From NCBI GenBank assembly GCA_951812955.1, contig OX638340.1:1888001-1952000 (forward strand): a stretch of DNA of 64,000 nucleotides, written 5' to 3'. Below the pieces are notes generated by a model, which was not told where the DNA came from, did not search any database, and saw only the letters and a program-made list of their open reading frames with translations. This DNA is from an uncultured Gemmatimonadota bacterium. GTDB lineage: Bacteria > JAAXHH01. Positions 1,835-52,070 of the stretch are shown here, one piece after another (positions within the stretch are counted from its first letter, which is position 1; each line of letters starts with the position of its first letter). The position numbers and the translations under genes are program-made.

Positions 1835-3289
1835 TCAATCCTCTGCAGGGCCGTATCCGCTGTAAGGTTCCGGAAGACCCTTACTCGCCACATCTTCCAT
1901 CACATCGCAGAAGTAATCCAGCTCGGGCAACGTAGTGTACAGATTCGACGAGATACGGACCCACCGCCGGCTGGAGTCCGTCCTGTCGTAACGGCCCCGG
2001 GACGTCTGGATCTGATGTTCATCCCATAGATAGTCTCGCATCCCGGTCGGATCAACCCCATCAATCCCGACCCCGGCAATACAGCAACTCATTTCAGGGG
2101 CCGTCGGCGTGTATACTTGAATCCTCGGATGCGTCTGAAGCCGTTCCGCCCAGTGGTTCTTCAGATACCGGAGCCGTTCTTCCTTGCGTTTCGATCCAAT
2201 GGCGTTGTGGAAGGCGAGGGCTTCGCCGATGGCAAGAAACGGCGCATGGGACAGGGTTCCGACGGACTCGTATTTCAGCATGCTTGTTCTGGGGTTGTAA
2301 CGGCGGCTCCTGGCCGGACCGTACAACGGCTCTATCTTCTCAACGTGATCGCGTTTCATGTAAAGCATCCCGGTCCCTTTCGGCGCGCTGAGCCACTTGT
2401 GCAGACTCGTACCGTAATAATCGCAACCCAGTTCCGAGACCTTGAAGTCTAGTTGGCCGACCGCATGGGCGCCGTCCACGACGACTTCGATACCGTACCG
2501 GTGCGCCAGGTCGCAGATACGCCGGACCGGGAACACCTGTCCGGTGGTATAGGTGATGTGGGACACGAGGATCAATCGCGTCTTCGGTGTGATGGCGCGC
2601 TCGAAGATCCCCACCAGGTCGTCCAGCGACTGTGCGGGCAGCGGCACCGGCGCCTGAACCAGCTTGATCCCCTCCTGCTTTTCCCGGTTCCTCAAGGCGC
2701 TCACCATGGAAGAGTAATCATGCGTCGTGGTAAGTACCTCGTCTCCCGGGTTCAGGGGAATGCCGTACAGGACCGTCTTGAGCGCCTCGGTCGTATTGCG
2801 TACGAGGGCGATTTCATCGGGACTGCTCCCGAAGAGGCGCGCCAGGGACCTCTTCACGGTACTCTCCTGGTCTCTGGCCTTTTGAACGTACAGGCCGTAC
2901 GGTCCCTGTTCCTGTTCCCATATGTACCGCACAACCGCTTCCGTGACGACGCGGGGCGACGGGCAGGTATAGCCGTTGTCCAGGTTGATCAGGCTTCGGT
3001 TCACGGTAAAGGCCTGCTTGACTTCGCTCCAGAGCCCTTCGTCACGGGCGGCCTGCTGCGGCGTCAGGTCCGAGATTTCGCTTACCGCCGCCTCGACTCC
3101 CCGGAACGAAGCGGGACCGAGGAACGTTGCCAGCCCTGCGGTCATGCCGGCGGTTTTCAGGAAGTGACGCCGTTCCATGGCATTCGGGCGTTCCACGGGA
3201 CGGTCGTTTTCTTCGAGACGGTCGTTTTCTTCGTTTTGCGGTCTCATCGTGCTTCTCCTTTTCCGGGCCGTTTCTGCCATCCCGGTCAT
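1835..3289 (-). CDS. PLP-dependent aminotransferase class V-fold enzyme (cysteine desulfurase / isopenicillin-N-epimerase-like), Tat signal
   Basis: 484-aa ORF. MERRHFLKTAGMTAGLATF twin-arginine motif at residue 38 (alternative start ~3178). Conserved SLHKWL PLP-lysine region and class-V fold signature. Confidence 0.75.
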   Translation of the reverse strand: MTGMAETARKRRSTMRPQNEENDRLEENDRPVERPNAMERRHFLKTAGMTAGLATFLGPASFRGVEAAVSEISDLTPQQAARDEGLWSEVKQAFTVNRSLINLDNGYTCPSPRVVTEAVVRYIWEQEQGPYGLYVQKARDQESTVKRSLARLFGSSPDEIALVRNTTEALKTVLYGIPLNPGDEVLTTTHDYSSMVSALRNREKQEGIKLVQAPVPLPAQSLDDLVGIFERAITPKTRLILVSHITYTTGQVFPVRRICDLAHRYGIEVVVDGAHAVGQLDFKVSELGCDYYGTSLHKWLSAPKGTGMLYMKRDHVEKIEPLYGPARSRRYNPRTSMLKYESVGTLSHAPFLAIGEALAFHNAIGSKRKEERLRYLKNHWAERLQTHPRIQVYTPTAPEMSCCIAGVGIDGVDPTGMRDYLWDEHQIQTSRGRYDRTDSSRRWVRISSNLYTTLPELDYFCDVMEDVASKGLPEPYSGYGPAED

Positions 3290-3570
3290 CCAATGAGGTA
3301 TTCAGCGAAATGAGTGCTACTGACTCAATGAAAAGTGTCCTTGACTCGCATCCTACTGTTTTTAAACTGATGACATCGGACCCGCTCGACGGATAGAAGA
3401 ACCGGGAAACCCGCTTCCCCTTACCTTTTTACACCGTGACCCCATATAAACTTGTGAAAAACATGGCTTCAAGCGCAGCATCCCGTCAGGTCAACGTTTA
3501 CACCGATTTCATTAACGACGAATCGAAGTGATCTGCCCGTCCAGATGTTAACCAGGAAAGAGAATCATCC

Positions 3571-4254
3571 ATGAACCCAAGCCTGCGACAGAGCATGAAC
3601 GAGTATTACGATGAACGAGCGGCCGAGTTCGACGAGATCTACACACTGGGCAAGCCGCCTGGTACGGTCACAGATCCGGAGCTATACAAAAAAGAGGCCC
3701 GGTCGCTGGCGCATCTCGTCCGGGTACACTGTCGCGGCAGCATCCTCGATATTCCCTGCGGAACGGGCTACTGGCTTCAGTTCTACGCCGCAAACTGTTC
3801 GGCGATCACGCTCGTGGACCAGTCGGAGAACATGCTGCGGGAAGGAAGAGAAAAAGCGCGCAAGCATGGCGTCGAGCCAATCACCACGTTCGTGGAGGCC
3901 GATGCCCTTGAAGTGCCGTTGGAAGACCGGTCATTCGATACCGTCCTGGTGGGCTTCTTCCTCAGTCACGTCACGGATAGCCAGATTGCGCTGTTTTTCA
4001 ATACACTGCGAAACCTGCTGAAACCGGACGGCCGCATGCTCATCCTGGACTCCAACTGGACCCGCTACCGCGGATCACGGCCCAAGGAAGGGACCACGTT
4101 GCGTACGCTCAATGACGGACGTAAATTCGAGATCTACAAGCGGTACTTTGAAGGGACCGATTTCGACCGGATGTCGGAGACCTGCGGAATGGATTTCACC
4201 GTGCGGCACGACGGCAAGCTTTACCTCGGCGTCACAGGCACGCTGCGTGATTGA
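3571..4254 (+). CDS. class I SAM-dependent methyltransferase
   Basis: 227 aa. Motif I ILDIPCGTGYW, post-I acidic residue, motif II/III spacing. ATG preceded by GGAAAGAG RBS. Confidence 0.8.
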   Translation: MNPSLRQSMNEYYDERAAEFDEIYTLGKPPGTVTDPELYKKEARSLAHLVRVHCRGSILDIPCGTGYWLQFYAANCSAITLVDQSENMLREGREKARKHGVEPITTFVEADALEVPLEDRSFDTVLVGFFLSHVTDSQIALFFNTLRNLLKPDGRMLILDSNWTRYRGSRPKEGTTLRTLNDGRKFEIYKRYFEGTDFDRMSETCGMDFTVRHDGKLYLGVTGTLRD

Positions 4255-4262
4255 ATCAGATT

Positions 4263-4973
4263 ATGCGAATCAAGCCAGTACCTGAAAAGCTGAAACCGGA
4301 GAACCTGAATCGGGCAACCATCGCCTATTACAACCTGCGGCAGGTTCATGGCGACATGCCTCACAGGATCCCAAGGGGGCCCTCGCCTGATCTGCCTGAC
4401 GAACAAGCCAGGATGATCCGGGAATCTCGGGAGGCCATGCGGGGCCGAAGGGTACTCGAGGTAGCGAGCGGTACGGGATCGGCGTCCAGGGAAATCGCGG
4501 TGACCGCAGTGTCTGTCACGGGCGTGGAGATCGCTTCCAATATGTTGAGCATCGCTAAAGAAAGCGATAACCCGTCCAACGTAAGTTACCTGGCTGGCGA
4601 CGCATTCGACCTTGAATCCATAGCGTCAGGTGAGCGCTTCGACGGTGGATTCGCATCTGGGTTTATGCACACCTGTCCTTCCTCGAGGTATTTGGAATTC
4701 CTGGATGGTTTTCACGGGCGGCTCGAGAAGGGCTCTACCGTATTCATGCGGTCGTCCAGACCGACAAGTCCTGATGCGGTAAGCAGGCTTTTCCGGGTTG
4801 AAGGTCACGCGGACCAGTTCATGACACGGCAGTTGTCCGATGGCTCCGAATATGTCATGGTCGAGAACGATCCGACCGAAGACGAACTCAGGCGCATATT
4901 CGAACCCCTGTCGAAGAACCTCATGGTGCATATCGGAAACTACTGGTGGTGGATCAGGTACGAACTGCCCTGA
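4263..4973 (+). CDS. class I SAM-dependent methyltransferase (second, tandem)
   Basis: Motif VLEVASGTGSAS. ORF begins at a TTG at 4251 overlapping the upstream stop; first ATG is 4263. Confidence 0.65.
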   Translation: MRIKPVPEKLKPENLNRATIAYYNLRQVHGDMPHRIPRGPSPDLPDEQARMIRESREAMRGRRVLEVASGTGSASREIAVTAVSVTGVEIASNMLSIAKESDNPSNVSYLAGDAFDLESIASGERFDGGFASGFMHTCPSSRYLEFLDGFHGRLEKGSTVFMRSSRPTSPDAVSRLFRVEGHADQFMTRQLSDGSEYVMVENDPTEDELRRIFEPLSKNLMVHIGNYWWWIRYELP

Positions 4974-4982
4974 GGCGGCTTC

Positions 4983-5864
4983 ATGCATGAGATCGTGCAA
5001 CATGATCACGCGCAAGATCTCCTCACGCTTTCCGGACCCTGCCTGGAATCACGCGAGAGCGAGAACAACCTGCCTCTGGGCCTTGCGCATACGCTGGCCA
5101 GGGATCCCCGGTACTTCGGCGATGATCCACCACTGCTCCTGAGCATACTGGAAAACGGCATTCCCGTCGGCGTAGCGGTCAGGACGCCGCCGCGTAAAAT
5201 CGTCCTGAGCCGATTCGATGCCGAAATCGAAGCGGCCGTGAACCGGCTAGTCAAACACCTGCGCAGCAATCCAATGATGGTTCCCGGCATCGTCGGACCG
5301 GAACGGGAATCACAGTGTTTCGCGGACCGCTGGTCGGAAGCCATTCCCGGACTTGCCGCAACGATTTCCACTCGGTTGCGGGTATTCGAGGCGCGCAGAA
5401 TTGTCGACGTGCCTCTTGCGCCGGGCTGCCTGCGCCGGGCCGGGATGGAGGACCTTCCGTTAATGTCCGAGTGGATCGAGGGCTTCGCCCGGGAAGCGTT
5501 AGGAGAAAAATCCGATCCCGGCAAGGCGCTGGACAAAGCGGAGAAATACATTGAAGAAAGGAATCTGTTCGTCTGGGACCATGGGGGACCGGTATCGATT
5601 GCCAGGGAATCCCGGCCCATGAAGCACGGCACGGTGATCTCGCTGGTGTACACGCCACCGGAACGCCGCGATCGGGGCTACGCGACTTCGTGCGTATACC
5701 GGTTGACGAAGAAACTGCTTGCGGGACGGTATCAGTTCTGTAGCCTGTTTACCGATCTGGCGAATCCGACCTCCAACCACATCTATCCGAGGGTCGGTTA
5801 CGTACCCTTAGGCGATACTTTGGAATTCGATTTTGATCACGCGGCAGGACCTACCGAACGCTGA
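4983..5864 (+). CDS. GNAT-family acetyltransferase-like protein (two-lobed)
   Basis: 293 aa. C-terminal FCSLFTDLANPTSNHIYPRVGYVP resembles the GNAT motif A/B acetyl-CoA region. N-terminal half may be a degenerate second GNAT lobe. Confidence 0.5.
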   Translation: MHEIVQHDHAQDLLTLSGPCLESRESENNLPLGLAHTLARDPRYFGDDPPLLLSILENGIPVGVAVRTPPRKIVLSRFDAEIEAAVNRLVKHLRSNPMMVPGIVGPERESQCFADRWSEAIPGLAATISTRLRVFEARRIVDVPLAPGCLRRAGMEDLPLMSEWIEGFAREALGEKSDPGKALDKAEKYIEERNLFVWDHGGPVSIARESRPMKHGTVISLVYTPPERRDRGYATSCVYRLTKKLLAGRYQFCSLFTDLANPTSNHIYPRVGYVPLGDTLEFDFDHAAGPTER

Positions 5865-10459: not shown

Positions 10460-12049
10460 TCAGTCCAGCGTCGGACCCGGAATCTCCAACTTCTCCCCGA
10501 CCGCACCGACCACGTCCCCCCGTGCGACCAGACCACGCATGATTTCGATCAGCGGCGCAAGCGGTACGTCGCGGTCCAGGAAGGGCACGTGCCGGCGGAT
10601 CATTCGGTACGCCGCGCCGGTCCCCCGTCCCATTCCATCCGGCGTGACGCCCGGTTCCCGGCACCTGAAATCGATGGCCTGTGCCGCGTCAATCAGTTCT
10701 ATGGCAACGATGGTCTCTACGTTTTCCAGGACCTGTTGCGTATGATGCACCGACGCCGCACCCATGCTCACGTGATCTTCCGTATTCGCGCCGCTCGGTA
10801 TCGAGTCCGCGCTGGCCGGGTGGGCCAGCACCTTGTTCTCCGACGCAAGGGCCGCCGCCGTGTACTGGGTGAGCATCAACCCGCTTTCCAGTCCGCCATG
10901 GTCCGTGAGGAACATGGGCAGGATGCCGCCGTTGGAGTCGGCGTCTACGAGCCGGGCCGTACGCCGCTCGCTCATGTTGCCCATGTCTACGATCGACAGC
11001 TTCATGCTGTCCATCGCCACGGCGATGGGTTCGCCGTGGAAGTTGCCCGCGCTGATGATCTCCGTGTCTTCGGGATCATCCCCGGCGAAGACCAGGGGAT
11101 TGTCGTTCGCGGAGTTCAGCTCGATGTTGATCATCCAGCGGGCGTAATCGATCGTGTCCCGGACCGCTCCGTGCACCTGGGGGACGCAGCGCAACGTGTA
11201 GGGATCCTGTACGTTGCCGGGATCGTCGGAACGGAGCAAACGGCTGCCGTGCAGCATGTCCCTCAGGAAGGCCGCGCAGGCGACCTGCCTGGGATGGGGA
11301 CGGATGGCGTGCACGCGGGCGTCGTACGCACGGTCGGTGCCGATCAGCGCTTCCAGGGTCATGGCGGCCGCGATGTCCGCCGTAAGCGCGAGATTTGTGG
11401 CCCGGTGTACCAGCAGGGCGCCGAGTCCCGCCATGAGGGTCGTGCCGTTTGTGAGGGCCAACCCCTCCTTCGCCCCCAGGATAACCGGTTCAAGCCCCGC
11501 CTTCCGGAGGGCCGTTGCGCCGTCGAGACGGCGGGAACGGTACATGGCCTCACCTTCTCCGATCAGCACCAGGGACATGTGCGCCAGGGTCGCCAGGTCT
11601 CCACTTGCGCCAAGGGAACCCCGGCCGGGGATGCAGGGGTGCACGCCCTCGTTGAGCATGTCCACCATCAGCTGGACGACTTCGGGCCGGATGCCCGAAT
11701 AGCCCATGGCGAGCGTATTGGCCCGGACGATCAGCATGGCGCGTACGGTCTCCTCGTCCAGTTCGGGCCCTGCACCGGCCGCGTGGCTTCTTATCAGATT
11801 GAGTTGCAATTCGGCGACCTGTTCGGAAGAGATCAGCTTGTCCTTGAATCGGCCGAAACCGGTGGTGATCCCGTAGGCGATCCGGCCCTCCGAGACCAAT
11901 CGATCCACCACTTCCCGGGAGCGTTTCATGCCGGGGAGGGCATCGGGGTGTATTGCGACGGGGCGGCCCTTCGAGACGGCGACCACCTCGTCGATGGTGA
12001 GATTGTAACCCGTGAGAGGCAGGACATCCTGGGAACGATCCATATCCAA
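10460..12049 (-). CDS. hutH: histidine ammonia-lyase
   Basis: 529 aa. ASG tripeptide (GASGDLATLAHM) that forms the MIO cofactor. Aromatic-amino-acid-lyase fold. Confidence 0.9.
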   Translation of the reverse strand: MDMDRSQDVLPLTGYNLTIDEVVAVSKGRPVAIHPDALPGMKRSREVVDRLVSEGRIAYGITTGFGRFKDKLISSEQVAELQLNLIRSHAAGAGPELDEETVRAMLIVRANTLAMGYSGIRPEVVQLMVDMLNEGVHPCIPGRGSLGASGDLATLAHMSLVLIGEGEAMYRSRRLDGATALRKAGLEPVILGAKEGLALTNGTTLMAGLGALLVHRATNLALTADIAAAMTLEALIGTDRAYDARVHAIRPHPRQVACAAFLRDMLHGSRLLRSDDPGNVQDPYTLRCVPQVHGAVRDTIDYARWMINIELNSANDNPLVFAGDDPEDTEIISAGNFHGEPIAVAMDSMKLSIVDMGNMSERRTARLVDADSNGGILPMFLTDHGGLESGLMLTQYTAAALASENKVLAHPASADSIPSGANTEDHVSMGAASVHHTQQVLENVETIVAIELIDAAQAIDFRCREPGVTPDGMGRGTGAAYRMIRRHVPFLDRDVPLAPLIEIMRGLVARGDVVGAVGEKLEIPGPTLD

Positions 12050-12065: not shown

Positions 12066-13715
12066 TCAGTCCATCATGGGGATCTTCACGCCACGGGCTT
12101 TCGCAACTGCCTCGGCCTCTTCGTAACCGGCGTCGACGTGCCGGGCCACGCCCATGCCCGGATCGTTGGTGAGCACACGCTCCAGGCGCGCGGCCGCCTC
12201 CGGTGTGCCGTCGGCGACGATGACCTGTCCGGCGTGCAGGCTGTATCCGATGCCCACGCCGCCGCCGTGATGGTAACTCACCCAGGTGGCTCCGCTGGCC
12301 GTATTGATGAGCGCGTTCAGCACGGGCCAGTCCGCGATGGCGTCCGACCCGTCTTTCATGGCCTCGGTTTCGCGGTTCGGGCTGGCGACGGACCCGCTGT
12401 CCAGGTGATCCCGGCCGATGACGATGGGCACACTGATCTCGCCCGAGGCAACCAGTTCGTTGAATTTGAGCCCGGCCCTGGCCCGCTCCCCGTAACCCAG
12501 CCAGCAGATTCGGGCCGGCAGCCCCTGGAATTCCACGTGCCGCCGGGCCATCGTGATCCAGCGGAACAGGTGGTCGTCCTCGGGAAACAGTTCGAGGACG
12601 GCCTGGTCCGTCCGGTAGATATCCTCGGGATCCCCCGAGAGGGCGACCCAGCGAAAGGGCCCCCTGCCTTCGCAGAACAGGGGCCGGATGTAGGCCGGCA
12701 CGAAACCGGGATAGTCGAAGGCCTCTTTCAGCCCGTTGTCGTATGCGCGTTGCCGGAGGTTGTTGCCGTAGTCGAAAACCACGGCCCCTCGCTTCTGCCA
12801 TTCGAGCAGGGTCCGTACGTGCACAGTCATGGATGCGATCGAGCGTTCCTGGTATGCGTCCGGATCGCGGTCGCGCAGCATTGCCGCCTCGTCAGGCGAC
12901 AGACCTGCGGGTATATAACCGTATAGCGGATCGTGGGCCGCGGTCTGATCGGTAACTACGTCGGGCGCCAATCCCCGGTCCAGCAGTTCGGGAAGTACCT
13001 CCGCGGCGTTACCGATCAGGGCGATCGACCGGGCTTCACCCGCGCTGAGTGCCTCGTTCACCCAGGTCAGCGCCAGGTCGAGGTTTTCCGCCACGGTATC
13101 CACCTGGCGCAGTTCGAGGCGCCGCCGCGCCCGCCGGGGATCCACCTCCACCAGCAGGCCCACGCCGCCGTTCATGGTGATGGCCAGCGCCTGGGCGCCG
13201 CCCATCTCTCCCAGGCCGGCCGTGACTACGAGCTTTCCCGCCAGGCTGCCCCATCCTTGCTTGCGGGCCAGCGCGCCGAAGGTCTCGTAGGTGCCCTGCA
13301 GGATGCCCTGCGTTCCGATGTATATCCAGCTTCCGGCCGTCATCTGGCCGTACATGATCAGGCCTTCGCGCTCCCAGGTATCGAAGTGCTCCTGTGTGGC
13401 CCAGGCCGGTACCATGTTGGAGTTTGCGATCAGAACGCGCGGCGCGTCTGCATGGGTGCGAAAAACCGCCACGGGTTTGCCCGACTGCACCATGAGGGTT
13501 TCGTCGGGTTCCAGGTCGCGCAGGGCGCGCAGTATGGCGTCGAAGGCTTCCCAGTTCCGGGCGGCCTTTCCCCTGCCGCCATACACGACAAGGTTGTCAG
13601 GATCGAAAGCGACCAGGGGGTCCAGGTTGTTCTGGATCATGCGGTAGGCCGCTTCGATGAGCCAGTTCTTACAACTCAGCTTCGTCCCCGTGGGGGCTTT
13701 CACGTTTCGTTTCAC
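12066..13715 (-). CDS. hutU: urocanate hydratase
   Basis: 549 aa. Full-length urocanase similarity, including the NAD-binding glycine-rich region. Confidence 0.9.
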
Positions 13716-13808
13716 ACCTGAACTTACGCGTTCCTTTCACGGTTCTTCCACTCTTCGTGGGCTAAACCTGAACTTACGCGTTCCTTTCACGGTTCTTCCA
13801 CTCTTCGT
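13716..13808. repeat. perfect 43-bp tandem direct duplication (period 50 bp) at the RraA-like/hutU junction
   Basis: ACCTGAACTTACGCGTTCCTTTCACGGTTCTTCCACTCTTCGT at 13716-13758 and 13766-13808. The second copy encodes the last 10 codons plus stop of the RraA-like gene. Confidence 0.9.
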
Positions 13809-14448
13809 AGATGAAATCTGGGCTGGTGATCATGTCGAAATGGGACCGCTCCCAGGTCCTGATTTCCCCCGCCTTTCTCAGCGTGTCTGCCGCGATGTCG
13901 AGGGGGATCTTCACCACGCCGTCGACGTCGGCGAGCAACAGGTCGCCGGTCTGAACCAGCAACTGGCCGGCGACGAGGGGACGGCCGACTGCCCGCACGT
14001 TGAAGGGACCGTGGCCCGATACCGTGCCGATGCCCCATATGGGCAGTCCCGCCCCCCGGATTCCCTCGAGATCGCGCACGCAGCCTTCGACAACGGCGCC
14101 CACCACGCCGAGCTTTCGGTGGATATGCGCCATGCCGTCACCGAAAAGGGCGGCACGCTTTGGGCGGGTGTCGACGTCCTTCATCACCGCGATCTTGGGA
14201 CCCGGTGTCTCGTTGAGCACGTCGTAGTAGTCGGACCAGTTCATGTTGGGGGGAGTGGGGTCCAGCGGCGTGACCTCGGAAGTCACGGCATACCCGACCA
14301 CGGTGCCGAATTCGGGCGTCAGGTACTGTATCTCCGGTCCGGTGTAATCGTCATTGGAAACGCCCTGTACTTTTTCTACGGCGTTGTATACCGTGGCCGA
14401 GTCGAATTCGGCCAGTCCGGTCAATACGGCGTTGTCCACGCGGGTCAT
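13774..14448 (-). CDS. RraA-like / 4-hydroxy-4-methyl-2-oxoglutarate aldolase-family protein
   Basis: 224 aa. RraA/demethylmenaquinone-methyltransferase-like fold signature (GDxxxA...GxxVxG pattern). AAGGAG RBS 8 nt upstream. Confidence 0.6.
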   Translation of the reverse strand: MTRVDNAVLTGLAEFDSATVYNAVEKVQGVSNDDYTGPEIQYLTPEFGTVVGYAVTSEVTPLDPTPPNMNWSDYYDVLNETPGPKIAVMKDVDTRPKRAALFGDGMAHIHRKLGVVGAVVEGCVRDLEGIRGAGLPIWGIGTVSGHGPFNVRAVGRPLVAGQLLVQTGDLLLADVDGVVKIPLDIAADTLRKAGEIRTWERSHFDMITSPDFIYEEWKNRERNA

Positions 14449-14677
14449 TCAGGTAACTCCTTTAATTGAAGAAAGAACAGATATTTGACGTATATAAAAC
14501 CGTCGCTGAGGGGAAGGTGAGTCGAGCGCTGTGCCTCGTAGGCTATAATCGATACGGGATGATCAAAAATCAAGGGAATTACGGAACTTACACCGCGTAA
14601 TCCACGGCCACCCGCGTCAGCAATTTGACCTGGTCCTCTCACCAAGTCGAATGAATCAATCGTTCGACGTAAATGCG

Positions 14678-14701
14678 TTGACACAGGCACGTACTTGTGT
14701 C
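14678..14701 (+). promoter_or_regulatory. 22-bp near-palindrome GACACAGGCAC|GTACTTGTGTC overlapping a TTGACA -35-like hexamer upstream of the DUF2911-like gene
   Basis: Dyad symmetry 9/11 per half-site, 70-90 bp upstream of the ATG at 14770. Confidence 0.3.
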
Positions 14702-14769
14702 ATTTTCTCCTGGCAAAGCCAACTTCAATGGCGTGTCAGAACAAGAACCGTATTCAGGAGGTTTTTTTT

Positions 14770-15330
14770 ATGCTTCGCATTACCCGTTTATTCAGTGTAC
14801 TGGCGCTTTCCGCGGCTTTCGTGGCCATGGGTAGCGGCGCCGTCGACGCTCAGACGACCATGCCTTCGGGCGAAGACAGTGCGGACATGGGCCGTGGCAT
14901 GGTGGAAGTATCGTTGATGGGCGGCAAGGTGTCCATCGACTACGGCCGTCCGGAAATGAAGGGCCGGGATATGCTGGCCATGGCGCCTGATGGATTCGTC
15001 TGGCGCTTCGGCAGCAACAAATCCACCACCTTCACTACGGAAGCCGATCTTATGTTCGGCGACCAGTCGCTGGCCAAGGGTTCCTACAGCGCGTGGATCA
15101 AGCACGTCGAAGGCGATTCCTGGACGCTCATTTTCAATAGCGAAGTGGGGATCTGGGGCGCACCCGGCGCCAGTCGGGAGAACGACGTGCTGGAAGTACC
15201 GCTGACCTACACCGTGGAAGATGAGATGGTCGAACGGCTCACCGTGAGACTCATGGTCATGGAAGACAAGGGTTTCGTGGGAGTCGGGTGGGGTACCCAC
15301 CGCCTGATTGTCAGTTTCTCGGCCAAGTAG
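14770..15330 (+). CDS. secreted DUF2911-like protein
   Basis: AGGAGG RBS at 14754-14759. Sec signal MLRITRLFSVLALSAAFVAMGSGAVDAQ. WRFGSNKSTT motif recalled from DUF2911. The upstream extension to 14695 lacks an RBS. Confidence 0.45.
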   Translation: MLRITRLFSVLALSAAFVAMGSGAVDAQTTMPSGEDSADMGRGMVEVSLMGGKVSIDYGRPEMKGRDMLAMAPDGFVWRFGSNKSTTFTTEADLMFGDQSLAKGSYSAWIKHVEGDSWTLIFNSEVGIWGAPGASRENDVLEVPLTYTVEDEMVERLTVRLMVMEDKGFVGVGWGTHRLIVSFSAK

Positions 15331-38745: not shown

Positions 38746-40314
38746 ATGAGCCGGACTGGATTTGTCACGATTTTATGTGCGTGTTTAGGGCTTTCAAGCG
38801 CGTGCAGCATGCAGGAGTTCGGATTCGAGCGAGACGAACGAGAGATCGAATTTGAGCACGACGGGCAAGACTATATCGATAGCACCAGGCAGAAATACGA
38901 GGTGAACTCCGGTGGGACACTGACGGTCGATGCCAAATTTGGGGCAATTCGCATCAGAAGCTCGATCAATGATGAAGTAGATGTCCTGGTGAGAAAGCGA
39001 TTTCGGGCAACCGATGCTGACCAGGTTCGAAAAGCCTTCAGTAATATCGAAGTCGTAATCGAACAGACGTACAACGGGGTACGAATCGAAGTCGATCAGA
39101 TCAGGTACCCCACGTACACGAAATGGTTCTGGCAGGAAGACTGGCCGGATCGGGTCTATGTCGAAATCAATGTTATAGTGCCTGAGGAATACAACCTCGA
39201 CCTCATTACCATAAGCGGTGATATCCAGACGGGGAATATCGCAGGAAATGTGACGGCTGAGACTCTTACCGGGGAAATTTCGACCGGTCCCACCGAAGGT
39301 GACTTGAGCATAAAATCGAACAGCGGGAATATAGAAACCAGCCGCGTGGTAGGCAGGTTGCACACCACTACACTGACAGGTAACATCAAGATCGGCCCAG
39401 TGGATGGTGATGCCACGGTCGATTCAAACTCTGGTAGAATAGAAACAGGTACCGTAGAGGAGGATCTGCAAGCCAAGACCCTAACAGGTAACATCAAGAT
39501 CGGCCCAGTGGATGGTGAGGCCACGGTCGGTTCGAACTCTGGCAGTATAGAAACAGGTACCGTAGTGGGGAATCTGCACGCCAAGACCCTAACAGGTAAC
39601 ATCGAAACCGGCCCAGTGTTTGGTGATGCGACGGTCTCTTCGAACTCTGGCAGAATAGAAACAGGTGCCGTAGCGATGGATCTGCACGCCAAGACCCTAA
39701 CAGGTAACATCGAAACCGGCCCCGTGGATGGTGATGCGACCGTCTCTTCGGCGACTGGCAGAATAAAAACAGGTACCGTAGAGGGGGATCTGCACGCTAG
39801 GACCTCAACAGGTAAAATCGAGATCGGTCCTGTGGATGGTGATGCAAACGTCAGTACGACATCTGGTATGGTCGAGGCCTCAAACGTGTTAGGGGTTTTC
39901 GAAACCAGATCCCTGAGCGGAGATATCAGACTAGGCCCCACAAGTGGCGACATTGTTGCTAGTTCAACCAGTGGTGATATCGAGGGGGAATTGATCGTAA
40001 CCGATCCATCCGTCGAGGCCAGGTACGACATGCAGACTCTGAGCGGAGATATAACCATTCAAATGCCAGTTGACATCCCGTCTGTTATTGATGCGCAGAT
40101 CACTATCGGGGAGATCATTGATCCGTGGTTGCCAAATTGGTGGCATGTCCAAAGGCGAATTAAATCCGATTTCGACCTGAACTTTAGTAGAATAGAATCT
40201 AGCCCAGGGAACTATGCAATTAAAGCTATCGGTGAAACGAATGGCGGTGGAAACAGAATCAAGCTGGTATCTACCGCTGGTAACATACGTATCCGAAGTA
40301 AAGACGATGAGTAG
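38746..40314 (+). CDS. DUF4097 (putative adhesin, beta-helix repeat) lipoprotein, paralog 1
   Basis: GGAGGAGG RBS. Signal/lipobox-like LGLSSAC. Five or more 36-aa repeats of LTGNIKIGPVDGDATV-SNSGRIETGTV. Lower GC than surroundings. Confidence 0.7.
   Translation: MSRTGFVTILCACLGLSSACSMQEFGFERDEREIEFEHDGQDYIDSTRQKYEVNSGGTLTVDAKFGAIRIRSSINDEVDVLVRKRFRATDADQVRKAFSNIEVVIEQTYNGVRIEVDQIRYPTYTKWFWQEDWPDRVYVEINVIVPEEYNLDLITISGDIQTGNIAGNVTAETLTGEISTGPTEGDLSIKSNSGNIETSRVVGRLHTTTLTGNIKIGPVDGDATVDSNSGRIETGTVEEDLQAKTLTGNIKIGPVDGEATVGSNSGSIETGTVVGNLHAKTLTGNIETGPVFGDATVSSNSGRIETGAVAMDLHAKTLTGNIETGPVDGDATVSSATGRIKTGTVEGDLHARTSTGKIEIGPVDGDANVSTTSGMVEASNVLGVFETRSLSGDIRLGPTSGDIVASSTSGDIEGELIVTDPSVEARYDMQTLSGDITIQMPVDIPSVIDAQITIGEIIDPWLPNWWHVQRRIKSDFDLNFSRIESSPGNYAIKAIGETNGGGNRIKLVSTAGNIRIRSKDDE
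39373..39912 (+). repeat. intragenic 108-bp tandem repeat, ~5 near-identical copies (36-aa beta-helix rungs)
   Basis: Copies begin at 39373, 39481, 39589, 39697 and 39805. Nucleotide identity of adjacent copies is very high. Confidence 0.85.
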
Positions 40315-40406: not shown

Positions 40407-41171
40407 ATGAAGACGATATGGATCACAGCGATTACGTGTATAGGTATTTATCCGGTTCTTGATTCCGGCGCGCAGACCACAGAGGTCATTCAAGTTGGGC
40501 AAGGATACGCGGCAACCATTGAAGAAACATTTACTGTGGAACCGGGCGGCGAACTGACCATCGATGCCGACTTCGGATCCGTCCGGATCGAGACTTCGAC
40601 GAGCAACACCGTGGAGGTTCTTGTGGAAAAGCGCCTGAAAGAGGGCACCGAAGACCAGGCACGCCGAGCCTTCGAAGAAGTGGAGGTAACAACAGAACAG
40701 CGGGGCAACGACGTACACATCGACGTTGACAATTCGCGATGGTTCAAGCGCGCCAGGGTTTCCGTAGCTATGACCGTGCAGGTGCCTTATACATACAGTC
40801 TGGATATCAAGACGGCAGGAGGCGGCATCGAAATCGGGAACCTGGACGGCGAGATCACGGCGAAGACTGCAGGCGGAAGCATCAGGACAGGAACCACGAA
40901 AGGGGACGTGACCGCCAAGACCCTGGGCGGAAGCATCCGTATCGGCCCGACTGAGGGAGGCGTGTCTGCCAAGACGATGGGCGGAAATATCGCTATAGGG
41001 GATACGAATGGGGACGTGTCGGCCCACACGCTGGGTGGAAGCATCCGCATCGGCATTGCGGACGGGGATGTACTTGCCAGGACGATGGGCGGAAACATCA
41101 CCGTTGAAGAAGCCTCGGGTAAAGTGTCTGCCAAGACCCTGGGCGGAAAAGTCCGGGTCGGTTCCACGTAA
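40407..41171 (+). CDS. DUF4097 beta-helix repeat protein, paralog 2
   Basis: N-terminal domain colinear with paralogs 1 and 3 (GGELTIDADFGSVRIE...VEVLVEKR). 19-aa TLGGSIRIG rungs. Sec signal. Confidence 0.65.
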   Translation: MKTIWITAITCIGIYPVLDSGAQTTEVIQVGQGYAATIEETFTVEPGGELTIDADFGSVRIETSTSNTVEVLVEKRLKEGTEDQARRAFEEVEVTTEQRGNDVHIDVDNSRWFKRARVSVAMTVQVPYTYSLDIKTAGGGIEIGNLDGEITAKTAGGSIRTGTTKGDVTAKTLGGSIRIGPTEGGVSAKTMGGNIAIGDTNGDVSAHTLGGSIRIGIADGDVLARTMGGNITVEEASGKVSAKTLGGKVRVGST

Positions 41172-41219
41172 CATATCTCTGGCGAAGACAACACCGCCTG
41201 TTTAGACATAAAGGGAGGG

Positions 41220-42506
41220 ATGATGCGTTTGTTATTGGTCGTGGTCAGTGTCAGTCTGCTCGTTGCCTCGGCATATGCATGCAGCGCACAGGAGGTCACG
41301 TTTATGCGCGACGATATGAGTCACGTAGAAAGAACCCACCAGAAATACATGGTGGATGGAACCGGCACGTTGACCGTAGACGCCGACTTCGGTTCGATTC
41401 GGATCGAGAGCTGGCCGAACGATGAAGTGGACGTCGAGGTAGAAAAACGCCGGACTGGAGTCAGCGAAGACAGCGCACGCGACGACTTCAACGACGTTGC
41501 CGTGGATATCTCACAACGGGAGAACGACGTCGACATCCAGATCGACCGGAAAAGCCGTTTCGGGTCGGAGAGGGTATCAGTGGATATACAGGTCCGGGTG
41601 CCGGAATCGTATAGCCTGGACCTCAAGACCTCGGGCGGGGATATCGATATCGGAGACCTGCGGGGCGACGTTTCCGCCCGCACCTCGGGAGGCGACGTCA
41701 ACGTCGGCACAGTGACGGAAGCGCTGCTCCGCGTTCACACGTCAGGAGGCGATGTGACCGTGAAAGGGGGCGGACGGGAAACGAAGGTATCCACCTCCGG
41801 CGGGGATATTGAGATCCGGGACGCCCGGGGCACAGTGGATGCGACCACCTCGGGCGGTGATATCACGATCGGCGGCACGGCCGGCGAAGTGACGGTGAGA
41901 ACATCGGGCGGCGATATCGAAATAGATCGGGCTGCGGGAAACACAGAGGCGACTACCTCGGGCGGCGACATAACGATAGGCCATACCACAGGGGACGTGA
42001 AGGCGAAGACCTCCGGCGGCGATATCACGATCGAGCGCGCAAACGGTGAGGTGGACGTTCATACTTCGGGTGGCGATGTGACCATCGACAGCGCTGAAGG
42101 AACCCTGAGGGCGGGCACTTCGGGTGGTGATATATCGATCAGCAATGCGCCGGGTGCCGGCTTAACGGCGAAAACCTCGGGTGGCGATATCGAAGCCCGT
42201 TTGAGCCCGACAGCAAGTGCATTGGAAGAAGAATGGATACTGAAGTCGTCCGGTGGGGAACTGACCATCCGCATTCCCGAGGATCTGTCCGCTACAGTCG
42301 AGGCGGAGATCCATCATGAGCGTTCCTGGTTCGGAAGCGACCGGGGGGATTATCAAATCGACTCGGATTTCGACCTGGACGAAGAGGTAGATGACGGTCG
42401 GGACCGAAGGACGATCCGGGCCACCGGCGATATCAACGGGGGCGGCAATCGCATCCGGCTCGAAACCAGCGGCGGCGATATTCGGATTCGTAAGGTGACT
42501 TCCTGA
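41220..42506 (+). CDS. DUF4097 beta-helix repeat protein, paralog 3
   Basis: AAGGGAGGG RBS. Signal MMRLLLVVVSVSLLVASAYAC. At least nine 19-aa TSGGDITI rungs. Confidence 0.7.
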   Translation: MMRLLLVVVSVSLLVASAYACSAQEVTFMRDDMSHVERTHQKYMVDGTGTLTVDADFGSIRIESWPNDEVDVEVEKRRTGVSEDSARDDFNDVAVDISQRENDVDIQIDRKSRFGSERVSVDIQVRVPESYSLDLKTSGGDIDIGDLRGDVSARTSGGDVNVGTVTEALLRVHTSGGDVTVKGGGRETKVSTSGGDIEIRDARGTVDATTSGGDITIGGTAGEVTVRTSGGDIEIDRAAGNTEATTSGGDITIGHTTGDVKAKTSGGDITIERANGEVDVHTSGGDVTIDSAEGTLRAGTSGGDISISNAPGAGLTAKTSGGDIEARLSPTASALEEEWILKSSGGELTIRIPEDLSATVEAEIHHERSWFGSDRGDYQIDSDFDLDEEVDDGRDRRTIRATGDINGGGNRIRLETSGGDIRIRKVTS

Positions 42507-46629: not shown

Positions 46630-47535
46630 ATGATTATGAACCTGCAAAAATCAATAGCTGTGCCGTTGGCAATGACGATCTGCCTGGTCCTCGTCTCCGT
46701 TACCGAGGTATCGGCCCAGGATCGGAGGACTTCGGGCTGGTATGTTTCCGGTGGACTGGGCGGCAACCTGGTATACGGCCTCGACCAGGCGGGTTCGAAC
46801 ACGGAATCCACGTGCTATCCGACCAGCGCCTGCTTCGATTTGGTTCTACGGGAAATTCCCGGTTACCGGTGGCGTTACGATCCGTCCGTCGACCGGGGTA
46901 TCGGTTTCGAAGCTGCCGTCGGACGGGTGTTCGACCGTACCCGCATCGAGGTCTCATTCGCGCATAGGAGAAACAACGTCGACCAGGGACCGCCGCTTGA
47001 GATAACCTATCTCGATGGCACCACCGCGGGAGTGAGTACCTATCTCGGACAGGGACTGGCGCAGACCATCAGCAGCAGTTTCATTGAGGATCAGGTTACT
47101 CGTTCGGTTTCATTGAACGCCTACTACGATCTGCCCTTCGGTCCGCAAAGAATCACGCCCTACGTGGGGGTGGGGACCGGTGCCGCCTTCGTTGAACTGA
47201 CCAGGATCTTCTTTTCGATAGAATACACCGACCCTTCAGGAGAAGGCACGCACTACGATCCCCCCCTGTCATTCTACAACAGCAAGCAGGATACGAGGTT
47301 ATCCAATACAGTCTTCGCGGGGCACGTGTACGCGGGAGCAGCCTACAGTCTGGGCGACCGTACTGCCATCGACCTGAAGATGGCCTACTCCAGGGTGGAC
47401 GACGTCGAACACACCGGTACCTACGAGTATCATCCTTATTTAGAGACGGACCCTGCCTTCACGAATAAAAACACGTTCAGCGCCATGAACCAGTGGTCCG
47501 TGACGGTGAACGTCCGTTTCCTGTTTGGAAACTGA
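46630..47535 (+). CDS. outer-membrane beta-barrel protein (OmpA/OmpW-like porin family)
   Basis: 301 aa. Sec signal ending VSAQ. Alternating amphipathic beta strands. C-terminal VRFLFGN. Confidence 0.55.
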   Translation: MIMNLQKSIAVPLAMTICLVLVSVTEVSAQDRRTSGWYVSGGLGGNLVYGLDQAGSNTESTCYPTSACFDLVLREIPGYRWRYDPSVDRGIGFEAAVGRVFDRTRIEVSFAHRRNNVDQGPPLEITYLDGTTAGVSTYLGQGLAQTISSSFIEDQVTRSVSLNAYYDLPFGPQRITPYVGVGTGAAFVELTRIFFSIEYTDPSGEGTHYDPPLSFYNSKQDTRLSNTVFAGHVYAGAAYSLGDRTAIDLKMAYSRVDDVEHTGTYEYHPYLETDPAFTNKNTFSAMNQWSVTVNVRFLFGN

Positions 47536-47590
47536 CGCGGGATCGGCAGACAGCGTCAAGATCAACCAAACCGAGCAGTATTCCGCCGAA

Positions 47591-47606
47591 CGAACGCGTA
47601 CGCGTT
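47591..47606. repeat. perfect 16-bp palindrome GAACGCGTACGCGTTC upstream of the arginase-family gene
   Basis: Self-complementary sequence. Overlaps a copy of the ACGCGT-core motif also seen at 13721, 13771 and 48548. Confidence 0.8.
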
Positions 47607-47637
47607 CCACCGACGCTCACTGAACCGAAATAGATAC

Positions 47638-48477
47638 ATGATTCTCGAATCGCTCAAAGCGGCTCTGGAAAAATCGGATCGGCAAAAACTTGCGCTGGTG
47701 GGGATCCCCGACGACGCCAATTCCACTTTCCTCCGTGGCGCGGCCGAAGCGCCTCCGAAGATCCGTGCGCAACTCTTCTCCGATGCCTTCAACATGTGGA
47801 CTGAGACGGGTGTCGATCTCGGCGAGGACGTTTTACTCGACGCGGGCGACCTGGACCTGGGCGAGGTCCCCGATGCCTGGGCCGCGATCCAGCACGCCGT
47901 CGAAGCGGTGCTCGATCATGGGCTCACACCCATCTGCCTCGGCGGTGACCACGCCATAACCTGGCCGATCGTTAAGGGGTTCCGGCGCAAGTACGACACG
48001 CTCAGCATCCTTCACTTCGATGCGCACCCTGATCTCTACGACAATTTCGGGGACAACCCCCGCTCCCATGCGTCTCCCTTCGCTCGGATTATGGAAAACC
48101 ACCTGGCGGACCGGCTCGTCCAGGTGGGTATCCGCACCGCAAATGGCCATCAGCGGAAGCAGGCCAGACGGTTTGGGGTCGAGATGATCGAGATGCGGGA
48201 GTTGACCGGGGATCTAAGTCTGGCATTCGACTCGCCCGTCTATATATCGGTGGACGTCGATGGTCTGGATCCGGCGTACGCGCCAGGCGTCTCTCATCCC
48301 GAGCCCGGCGGCCTTTCCCCGCGGCAGGTGATCGACACGATTCAGCGTTTGGACGGCAGAATCGTCGGGGCGGATATCGTCGAGGTCAATCCGCGGAGGG
48401 ATTTCCACGATCTGACGGCGGTCGTCGCGGCTAAGATCGTGAAGGAAGTCGCCGCAAAGATGCTGGTGCATGCATAG
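47638..48477 (+). CDS. arginase/agmatinase/formiminoglutamase-family ureohydrolase
   Basis: 279 aa. Mn-binding motifs GGDHAIT, HFDAHPD, SVDVDGLDP. Confidence 0.85.
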   Translation: MILESLKAALEKSDRQKLALVGIPDDANSTFLRGAAEAPPKIRAQLFSDAFNMWTETGVDLGEDVLLDAGDLDLGEVPDAWAAIQHAVEAVLDHGLTPICLGGDHAITWPIVKGFRRKYDTLSILHFDAHPDLYDNFGDNPRSHASPFARIMENHLADRLVQVGIRTANGHQRKQARRFGVEMIEMRELTGDLSLAFDSPVYISVDVDGLDPAYAPGVSHPEPGGLSPRQVIDTIQRLDGRIVGADIVEVNPRRDFHDLTAVVAAKIVKEVAAKMLVHA

Positions 48478-48587
48478 TCGTGCATAGTCGTCCGCACCGG
48501 AATCAGGTGATCTGCAGCAACTGCGCGCTATAGTTACGCGAATTCGGAACTTACGCGTACCTTCCACTTTTCGCGGCGAATCGGGCG

Positions 48588-48653
48588 TTCACAAACAAAA
48601 ACACGTCCAGCGCCACGAACCAACCTGTCCGTGACACTGAACGTGCGTTTCTG
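48588..48653 (+). pseudogene. degenerate duplicate of the 3' end of the OMP gene (46630-47535)
   Basis: ~80% nucleotide identity to 47458-47523 (FTNKNTFSAMNQWSVTVNVRF vs FTNKNTSSATNQPVRDTERAF). No upstream ORF. Confidence 0.5.
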
Positions 48654-48720
48654 CAGGTAATTGACACGGGACGGCGTTACCCAGGACGGTTCAATTCAGC
48701 CCGTACGCCTGCCCAGCCCC

Positions 48721-50154: not shown

Positions 50155-51984
50155 TTACGCGAGTCCCAGTTCCATCAGTTTCTCCGTGGTGGGCCGTCCG
50201 TCCGCCGACCAGCCCCTTGCCGCGTAGTAGTCCGGCAGCATGGCGTCGAGATCGACGGTCACCCCCGCGGAAGGACCATCCTTGTGGGCTTCTTCCATCA
50301 ATCGTTTAGGCAGCGTGTCATCGGCCGCGGTGAGGCCCGCCCTGAGATTCCACAGCCGTTCGATATTCCAGATGCGCTCGCCGATGTGCACGAAGTCTTC
50401 CATGGTATAGTCTACGCCGGTGGCTGCGGACAATACGGGGATCAGGTCTTCCAGCGGCGCGCCCGCCGTGGTGAACATGCAGATGCCCGTGGCGTCGTGG
50501 GCCGTGGTCCGGTTTTGTTCCTCGGCCACCCAGACCGACTTGCCCTCGGTGCCGTGGGGATCGTGCTCGCCGGTGGTCTCGATGCCGGGTGTCCAGGCCC
50601 TCAGGTGACAGGCGCCGCGGTTGCAGGTGGCATAGGCCACGCCCATGCCCTGGAATCCCCGTGGATCGTAAGCGGGGAATTCCTGTCCCTTGACGCCCAT
50701 GAAATACTCCGGATGCTCGAATTTCTCGGTCATCCGCTTTGACCCTTCGGCCAGTTCGTCGCCGAAACCCTCCCGGAATCCCGTGGCTTCCGTCATGGCG
50801 ACCAGAGCCTTGCCGTCACCGAACCGGAACGCCATGCCCGTCTGCCCATCGCTCAGCAGGCCCCGCTCATACATTTCCATGGCCGCGGCCAGCGTGGCGC
50901 CCATGGAAATGGGATCCATGCCGAGATCGTTGCACAGGTAGTTCGCCATGACGATGGCGTCCATGTCATCCACGCCGCAGTCGGCCCCGAGCGACCAGAG
51001 GTTCTCGTATTCGGGTCCTTCCCCGGCGACCTTCCAGTTGCGGGGATGCATGTTGACCATGTACTGGTCGGCATTGGGGGAAACCTGGGTCACACGGCCG
51101 CAGGCGATGTTGCAGGCGAAGCATGCCTTGTTGGCGACCAGCCAGTTATCCTTGATGCTCTCCCCGTTGATCGCCTCGGTGCCCTCGAACTGTCCGGCCG
51201 TGAAATTGCGCGTCGGCAGCCCGCCGAAAGCGTTGACGAGGTCGATCGTTGGCGCTGTGCCTAATTCCGTAAGGCCTTGCCGGCCAGGGCTTTCGGCCAG
51301 GTGTTCGTGATAAGGCCAGATGGCGGACATGTAGTCCCGGGGCCGGGCAATCCGGACCCCCTGGTTGCCGCGTACGGCGATCGCCTTGAGGTTCTTGGAC
51401 CCCATGACGGCGCCGACGCCGGAACGGCCCGCGGCACGGTGCTTGTCGTTGACGATGCACGCGAACCGCACCAGGTTCTCGCCCGCCGGTCCGATGCCGG
51501 CCACCCGTAGTTCGGGCATGCCGGTCTCGTCGCGGATGGCGTCCTCGGTTTCCGAGACCACCTTGCCCCACACATTGGAGGCGTCGCGGATCTCGACGCG
51601 GTCATCATCGACAAGGAGGTAGCACGGACGGTCCGACCGGCCTTCCACGATCACCATGTCGTAGCCGGCGAACTTGAGTTCCGGACCCCAGTGGCCGCCT
51701 GAATTGGACGTCGTGATGGCGCCCGTCAGCGGTCCCTTGGTCACCACCATGTACCTGGATCCGCAGGAGGCGTTGGTGCCCGTCAGCGGCCCGGTGGCCA
51801 TGATCAGCTTGTTGTCCGGTCCGAGGGCGTCGACAGAGGGGTCCATCTCCTCGTAGAGGTACCGCGCGGCCAGCCCGCGGCCGCCGATGTATTCCTCGGC
51901 CCAGTCGAGCCTCAGAGGCTCTTTGGTCGCCTTGCCCCGCGAAAGATCCACCCGCAGGATATGGCCGGCCCACCCGTGTGTCAT
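50155..51984 (-). CDS. aldehyde:ferredoxin oxidoreductase family (tungstopterin) enzyme, copy 1
   Basis: Start taken at MTHGWAGHILRVDLS (ORF extends to 52044). AOR N-terminal domain plus cluster-binding C-terminal domains. Confidence 0.9.
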   Translation of the reverse strand: MTHGWAGHILRVDLSRGKATKEPLRLDWAEEYIGGRGLAARYLYEEMDPSVDALGPDNKLIMATGPLTGTNASCGSRYMVVTKGPLTGAITTSNSGGHWGPELKFAGYDMVIVEGRSDRPCYLLVDDDRVEIRDASNVWGKVVSETEDAIRDETGMPELRVAGIGPAGENLVRFACIVNDKHRAAGRSGVGAVMGSKNLKAIAVRGNQGVRIARPRDYMSAIWPYHEHLAESPGRQGLTELGTAPTIDLVNAFGGLPTRNFTAGQFEGTEAINGESIKDNWLVANKACFACNIACGRVTQVSPNADQYMVNMHPRNWKVAGEGPEYENLWSLGADCGVDDMDAIVMANYLCNDLGMDPISMGATLAAAMEMYERGLLSDGQTGMAFRFGDGKALVAMTEATGFREGFGDELAEGSKRMTEKFEHPEYFMGVKGQEFPAYDPRGFQGMGVAYATCNRGACHLRAWTPGIETTGEHDPHGTEGKSVWVAEEQNRTTAHDATGICMFTTAGAPLEDLIPVLSAATGVDYTMEDFVHIGERIWNIERLWNLRAGLTAADDTLPKRLMEEAHKDGPSAGVTVDLDAMLPDYYAARGWSADGRPTTEKLMELGLA

Positions 51985-52070
51985 GAAGAAGGCTCCGTTC
52001 CTCGGCGCTAGCCGGGTGATGCAGGGCCGCGCCCTGTGGATCACCCTTCCGGCTCATGCCGGATGAAGCG

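Follow-up and report, generated by a model that had tools for sequence, protein, structure and literature searches.

The hut locus described here lies on the minus strand of the window, by which we mean the whole 64-kb stretch of DNA that was analysed, and includes a RraA-like gene, hutU and hutH (Table 1). The gene order Ldh_2, DUF2911 (on the opposite strand), RraA-like, hutU, hutH, hutI is kept among relatives. These are metagenome-assembled genomes that bear the labels Gemmatimonadota or Latescibacterota, and their bin names suggest that many were recovered from sponge or coral metagenomes. Throughout this group (L001-L034) the hutU-hutH-hutI cluster begins with the RraA-like gene, and no paper that links RraA with urocanase came up in a literature search. 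An AAGGAG Shine-Dalgarno sequence is conserved upstream of the RraA-like gene in the same loci, where a promoter-like TTGATT...TATAGC is also present (region to 14690), and no comparably good Shine-Dalgarno sequence precedes hutU in any lineage compared. For the duplication, a search of the minus (coding) strand gave no promoter- or terminator-like site, the absence of terminators extending over 13400-14800.

Table 1 Features of the hut locus and of the arginase-family flank, in window coordinates.
Feature	Position	Strand	Description
RraA-like gene	13774-14448	-	PF03737, 224 aa; first in the conserved RraA-like/hutU/hutH/hutI cluster
Copy 1	13766-13808	-	2 nt of a Tyr codon, last 10 codons of the RraA-like gene, TAA stop (13774-13776) and 8 nt of the original intergenic spacer
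Spacer (filler)	13759-13765	-	7 nt, TTAGCCC (GGGCTAA on +); the same in every lineage that carries the insertion; unlike either repeat flank
Copy 2	13716-13758	-	Non-coding, in the hutU leader; 43/43 identical to copy 1
GTGAAACGAAAC	13704-13715	-	Last 12 nt of the ancestral 20-nt spacer; opens with the alternative in-frame start
hutU (urocanase)	12066-13715	-	Three urocanase domains; ORF from GTG 13715
hutH	10460-12049	-	
Third GAACTTACGCGT site	48547-48558	+	Inside an approximately 85-nt window-only insertion (about 48486-48570) downstream of the arginase-family gene

The hutU start that is conserved in relatives is the GTG at 13703 (GTG AAA GCC, MKAPTGT). The alternative in-frame start at 13715 is GTG in the window and TTG in L006, L007, L033 and L034. 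In one of these, L006 (complete MAG chromosome OY762445.1), the conserved start reads GTT and not GTG (3690-3700), so hutU must there use the TTG that precedes it by 12 nt and follows the RraA-like stop at 8 nt. Two irregularities among the compared sequences should also be mentioned. In L029 hutU is split into ORFs of 479 and 85 aa (2120-5334) and the RraA-like gene is preceded by a run of N, both of which point to a problem of assembly quality. Two database versions of the RraA-like protein (P0126 and P0127) are extended by 85 aa at the N-terminus, apparently through a miscalled start codon.

Across the junction of the RraA-like gene and hutU lies a direct repeat of 43 nt, whose two copies are identical (43/43) and separated by 7 nt. 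This repeat was unmatched in every shuffle of the window and had a self-BLAST E-value of 3e-16. No further copy of the 43-mer was found in the window when up to three mismatches were allowed, nor did self-BLAST detect another family member. Tandem Repeats Finder did not report it, because fewer than two full periods are present. On the minus strand the 43-mer reads (T)AC GAA GAG TGG AAG AAC CGT GAA AGG AAC GCG TAA GTTCAGGT. An earlier note on this DNA had described two identical 43-bp copies with 7 bp between them, as well as the duplication of the 3' coding end of the RraA-like gene into the hutU leader, and we could confirm both, the duplicated part including the stop codon and the first bases of the spacer. 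The same note placed copy 2 directly upstream of the hutU start, which is correct for the first in-frame GTG (13715) but not for the conserved start at 13703, 12 nt further on.

The term tandem duplication used in that note also needs some qualification. The repeat itself is perfect, but the 7-nt contexts of its copies are all unlike, namely TTCATCT before copy 1, TTAGCCC between the copies and GTGAAAC after copy 2, and therefore there is no clean, seamless tandem unit of 50 nt. Base by base, TTAGCCC agrees with TTCATCT on the left at 3/7 and with GTGAAAC on the right at 2/7.

Of the orthologous loci, 23 more distant ones (L001-L005, L008-L025) have the sequence once only, and their RraA-like stop is followed at a distance of exactly 20 nt by the conserved hutU start, which has the form (A/G)TG AAA GCx CCx ACG and encodes MKAPTGT. 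When 50 nt are removed from the window the same ancestral layout is recovered (TAA, GTTCAGGTGTGAAACGAAAC, GTG AAA GCC, with a 20-nt spacer). The window therefore carries a 50-nt insertion, composed of copy 2 and the 7-nt spacer, which is missing in single-copy relatives. The same insertion, with the same TTAGCCC, is present in L007, L028, L032 and L034, which represent three other lineages and were obtained from separate samples, in separate studies and with different assemblers. One of them, L007, is a bin of Aplysina type, with 97% identity to the window in the RraA-like protein, and L028 is an independent assembly of the L007 type, found as one contig in a scan of metagenome contigs with a junction 23-mer; an exact 23-mer from the stop region of the window gave no metagenome match. 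The RraA-like and arginase-family proteins of the window had no exact match in a contig index, and L032, L034 and further relatives were reached through cluster members instead. Five other loci of the same clade, from three lineages (L006, L029/L030/L031 and L033), have one copy only.

The comparison of orthologous loci, proposed in the earlier note, thus shows a real lineage-specific duplication. That the duplication is an artefact of assembly or scaffolding, an alternative that the note had also raised, is hardly credible: overlap-joining errors can yield perfect repeats at short distance, but the identical 50-nt insertion and spacer occur in five carrier assemblies including the window, with L007, L028, L032 and L034 derived from separate samples, studies and assemblers, and in L007, L028 and L034 the two copies have diverged from each other.

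Within the clade the RraA-like gene and hutU are 94-99% identical, as compared with about 85-91% identity to outgroups. Carriers and non-carriers of the insertion are interleaved on neighbour-joining trees built from the left (2.5 kb) and right (2.8 kb) flanks, and each allele of a [G/T]TGAAAC SNP located right after the repeat is found both with and without the duplication, so that all four combinations exist. As the spacer is identical in every carrier, the simplest account is that the duplication was gained once and then precisely lost several times, through recombination or slippage between the copies, and some exchange between lineages is possible.

The copies differ from each other at 0/43 positions in the window and in L032, at 2/43 in L007 and at 3/43 in L034. 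In the window both copies have AAG and CAGG, which are derived, while both copies of L032, the sister of the window on the left-flank tree, have AAA and CCGG, also the state of single-copy relatives. The presence of two derived substitutions in both window copies indicates that these were homogenised at least once in the window lineage, and from the pattern of substitutions we infer that gene conversion or unequal exchange must have been responsible, in one event or more. The 50-nt duplication is a real, heritable and recombinationally unstable allele at an operon junction, and belongs to an ordinary mutation class.

The earlier note had further connected the repeat with an arginase-family gene elsewhere in the window, through a 12-mer, GAACTTACGCGT, present in both copies and again near that gene, and had suggested a dispersed repeat, a recombination site or a shared regulator-binding motif. 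The 12-mer has three exact sites in the window against 0.25 expected, two of which are the duplication itself, and when one mismatch is allowed no site is added to these three. The third site does exist, at a position that we corrected (Table 1). The related sequence on the other side of the gene, ACGCGTTCCAC, is likewise present, but its place is 47600-47610, where it is part of a 16-bp palindrome (47592-47607). This palindrome, GAACGCGTACGCGTTC, precedes the start codon of the arginase-family gene by 31 nt and is perfect only in the window, relatives having GTACGCGTACGCGTTC or GAACGTGTACGCGTTC. The sequence GAACGCGTA occurs four times in place of the 0.44 expected, and all four sites are accounted for, two by the duplication and two by the two strands of one palindrome.

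That GAACTTACGCGT(T/A)CC is a dispersed repeat, a recombination site or a regulator motif common to the hutU leader and the flanks of the arginase-family gene is, in our judgement, very improbable. Besides the excess of sites just described, the idea draws on the best gapped match of the 43-mer, to 48547-48575 (score 16.5, 25/27 bases), which is equalled or beaten by 2.75% of real 43-mers (p about 0.03). Against it, an exact 12-mer that recurs in the window is found in 522 of the 1313 43-nt tiles (40%). When the 48.5-kb segment was used as the query its match scored 17.0, inside the range of the shuffles (maximum 18.8), and a similar match of 16.25 was found at 24637. The approximately 85-nt insertion that contains the 48547 site is missing, together with the 12-mer, in five orthologous loci (L035-L039), so that this site is specific to the window, and the imperfect state of the upstream palindrome in relatives also speaks against a shared site. 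Across the 39 fetched loci the 12-mer is found only at the RraA-like stop, where it represents the codons Asn-Ala-stop and is kept as coding sequence in relatives whose protein ends in Asn-Ala.

The repeat resembles REP/BIME elements and MITEs in being a short intergenic repeat with a small palindrome (ACGCGT, and GGAAC...GTTCC in the ancestral form), but differs from them in having two adjacent copies only in 64 kb and 39 related loci, in that half of each copy is coding sequence and in lacking terminal inverted repeats. The many intergenic copies typical of REP- or MITE-like repeats were found neither in the 64-kb window nor in the 39 loci, and the conserved position and over-representation expected of a shared transcription-factor operator were not seen either. 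We conclude that the GAACTTACGCGT match near the arginase-family gene is due to chance. We also considered whether the 48.5-kb site could be a decayed third RraA-like tail (CCCGATT...CGAAAAGTGGAAG-gap-GTACGCGTAAGTTCCG), and rejected this, as the resemblance is indistinguishable from chance and confined to the window lineage.

Some features of the surroundings of the arginase-family gene are worth recording in their own right. The approximately 85-nt insertion (region 48471-48570) replaces about 15 nt present in L035-L039, and opens with a 10-nt tandem repeat, TGCATAGTCG x2 (48471-48490), which spans the TAG stop of the gene. The gene itself (agmatinase-like, 47638-48477) stands between two related sequences, at 47414-47550 and 48590-48675. 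The first is the intact 3' end of an outer-membrane beta-barrel gene (46630-47535), and the second is a degenerate copy of that 3' end, approximately 70% identical (score 135, shuffle maximum 53) and conserved in the five related loci L035-L039. This arrangement suggests that the arginase-family gene may have been inserted into the end of the outer-membrane-protein gene, or have arrived with its replacement.

Integrating elements typically duplicate the 3' end of their target gene, and the two copies of the 43-nt repeat could accordingly be the attL/attR-like relic of an element whose integration site was the RraA-like 3' end and of which nearly everything has since been deleted. A direct repeat of a gene 3' end that leaves the gene intact is indeed what att-site duplications look like, and the arginase-family gene of the same window, flanked by intact and degenerate outer-membrane-gene 3' ends, speaks for the idea. 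What is missing is the element, given that the copies are separated by just 7 nt in all five carrier loci, that the locus has no integrase and no remnant of an element, and that nothing larger occupies the position in any lineage found. We therefore hold this origin to be highly unlikely.

The reading that we favour, and regard as probable, is that of a small insertion-duplication allele and not a functional motif, with one gain, repeated loss, homogenisation and a near-neutral effect. The ancestor of a narrow, sponge-associated, Gemmatimonadota-like clade would have gained the 50 nt between the RraA-like stop region and hutU, as a copy of the 43-45 nt that come immediately before it (32 bases from the end of the coding sequence, the stop and 8-10 bases from the beginning of the spacer) together with 5-7 filler bases, presumably through an error of replication or repair. 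Being in tandem, the copy would change neither how the RraA-like gene ends nor what directly precedes hutU, so that both ORFs would remain intact and the insertion could be tolerated. The allele would then have been inherited and would segregate within the clade, and recombination of the copies with each other would explain both the precise losses and the homogenisation, of which there was at least one event. Flank-copying insertions seem to be a common class of mutation, since in a survey of bacterial pseudogenes 34-51% of insertions made direct repeats of flanking sequence (PMC6054270).

How the junction arose is less simple. The locus has what defines a tandem duplication, namely head-to-tail copies of adjacent sequence that are missing in related genomes, and it shares with duplications produced by slipped strands or break repair the copying of a flank, the outgroups that lack it, the precise loss and the homogenisation. 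Slipped-strand mispairing is said to have been described as a source of short tandem duplications by Levinson and Gutman in 1987. However, simple slippage leaves a seamless junction, usually with microhomology, which is not what we find. The junction bases TTAGCCC are unlike the flanks, and in the T-variant lineages, which have a 45-nt repeat and AGCCC as filler, the boundary shares only TT. As these 5-7 junction bases match neither flank, one-step slippage of a 50-nt unit does not reproduce the junction, and, as far as can be judged from its sequence, a filler or a multi-step origin must be assumed in place of a simple slipped-strand duplication. AGCCC-CCACGGGG-ACGAAG is found near the beginning of hutU, in its start region, and ACGAAG also opens the repeat, in the RraA-like tail. 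A slippage of 73 nt between these two ACGAAG microhomologies, together with two internal deletions, would explain the AGCCC filler, but we set this aside as speculation, because three events without microhomology would be required.

The insertion increases the distance from the RraA-like stop to the hutU start from 20 to 70 nt, or from 8 to 58 nt if the alternative start is used. The lack of a Shine-Dalgarno sequence at hutU and the presence of AAGGAG on the RraA-like gene suggest that translation of hutU is normally coupled to termination at the upstream stop. The ancestral arrangement, in which 8 nt separate the stop from an in-frame [G/T]TG and 20 nt separate it from the conserved GTG/ATG, likewise resembles translationally coupled junctions, in which, as here, the downstream gene has no good Shine-Dalgarno sequence and the upstream one does. 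The duplication departs from such junctions in that it shifts the stop 50 nt away, which should weaken the coupling, itself recognised here from sequence alone. The longer gap would thus probably weaken termination-reinitiation coupling slightly. Given that three sister lineages and all outgroups manage without the duplication, its effect on hutU is probably neutral or slight.

Two ways in which ribosomes might bridge the longer gap, or read through it, were considered and rejected. A relay mini-ORF that would use the copy 2 stop and deliver ribosomes to hutU has no in-frame start codon after the upstream TGA, and an extension of the RraA-like protein into copy 2 by frameshifting lacks a slippery site. 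At the RNA level, an Rfam search of the leader matched no family, and the hutU leader does not have the GC-rich hairpin followed by a U tract that characterises an intrinsic terminator or attenuator.

A modest hairpin is predicted across the duplication, one arm being the spacer joined to the 3' half of copy 1, the other arm the 5' half of copy 2. It is conceivable, although we think it unlikely, that selection keeps the duplication as an intercistronic spacer and hairpin which uncouples or tunes hutU translation or mRNA processing. The extra 50 nt would then set the hutU start apart from ribosomes that terminate on the RraA-like gene, and the hairpin would be built from pairs of ACGCGU with ACGCGU and of UUCCGGUUU with AAACCG-GAA. 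The consensus hairpin is predicted at -35 kcal/mol, and the predicted fold of the duplicated allele of the window has a z-score of -2.25 relative to shuffles, compared with -0.6 for the single-copy allele. Such a z-score is nevertheless weak, and direct repeats which bear a palindrome (ACGCGT) pair trivially. Among the 35 predicted RNA pairs, in four carrier sequences only, there were no compensatory changes, three one-sided substitutions that keep the pair (in L007 and L034) and two pairs broken in the window, numbers which are far too small to weigh. The one-sided substitutions speak for selection on the structure, whereas the absence of compensatory change speaks against it, as does the C-to-A change of the window, which breaks a predicted pair in both copies.

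The persistence of the allele bears on the same question. Repeats of 43 nt placed 7 nt apart are expected to delete easily, through RecA-independent deletion between close direct repeats. Nevertheless, the allele persists in four lineages which have diverged by 3-5% in the flanking genes, though its copies recombine, and this could mean that selection retains it. The spacer is moreover invariant across all carriers, and translation of hutU, in the absence of a Shine-Dalgarno sequence, should depend on its spacing from the upstream stop. If the duplication were indeed selected, this would explain how a deletion-prone repeat outlasted such divergence, and gene conversion between the 43-nt copies would keep them identical in some lineages. 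On the other hand, the duplication is dispensable in three sister lineages and in the 23 more distant loci, and copy 2 gathers substitutions in L007 and L034.

Nothing supports either a new regulatory motif or a mobile element, and, in the sequences compared, the duplication appears to carry no sign of a sequence-specific function. Beyond the clade it matters little. What the small insertion-duplication allele does offer is a clean natural case, among closely related uncultured symbionts, in which the descent, repeated precise loss and homogenisation of a short tandem duplication between two operon genes can be traced. It could serve as a strain marker for sponge-associated populations and, if the alleles differ in hutU expression, would provide a simple natural test of stop-to-start distance against translational coupling.

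Other repeats are present in the window. A second perfect small tandem duplication, at 3199-3233, has an 18-nt unit (GACGGTCGTTTTCTTCGA) in 1.9 copies and lies less than 100 nt from the start of a 484-aa ORF on the minus strand (1835-3289). The regions 39359-39852, 40555-42194 and 50335-53793 contain tandem repeats of 108 nt (4.4 copies, 87% identical), accompanied by weaker arrays in the vicinity, as well as a pair of paralogous segments that are about 74% identical and roughly 1.9 kb apart.
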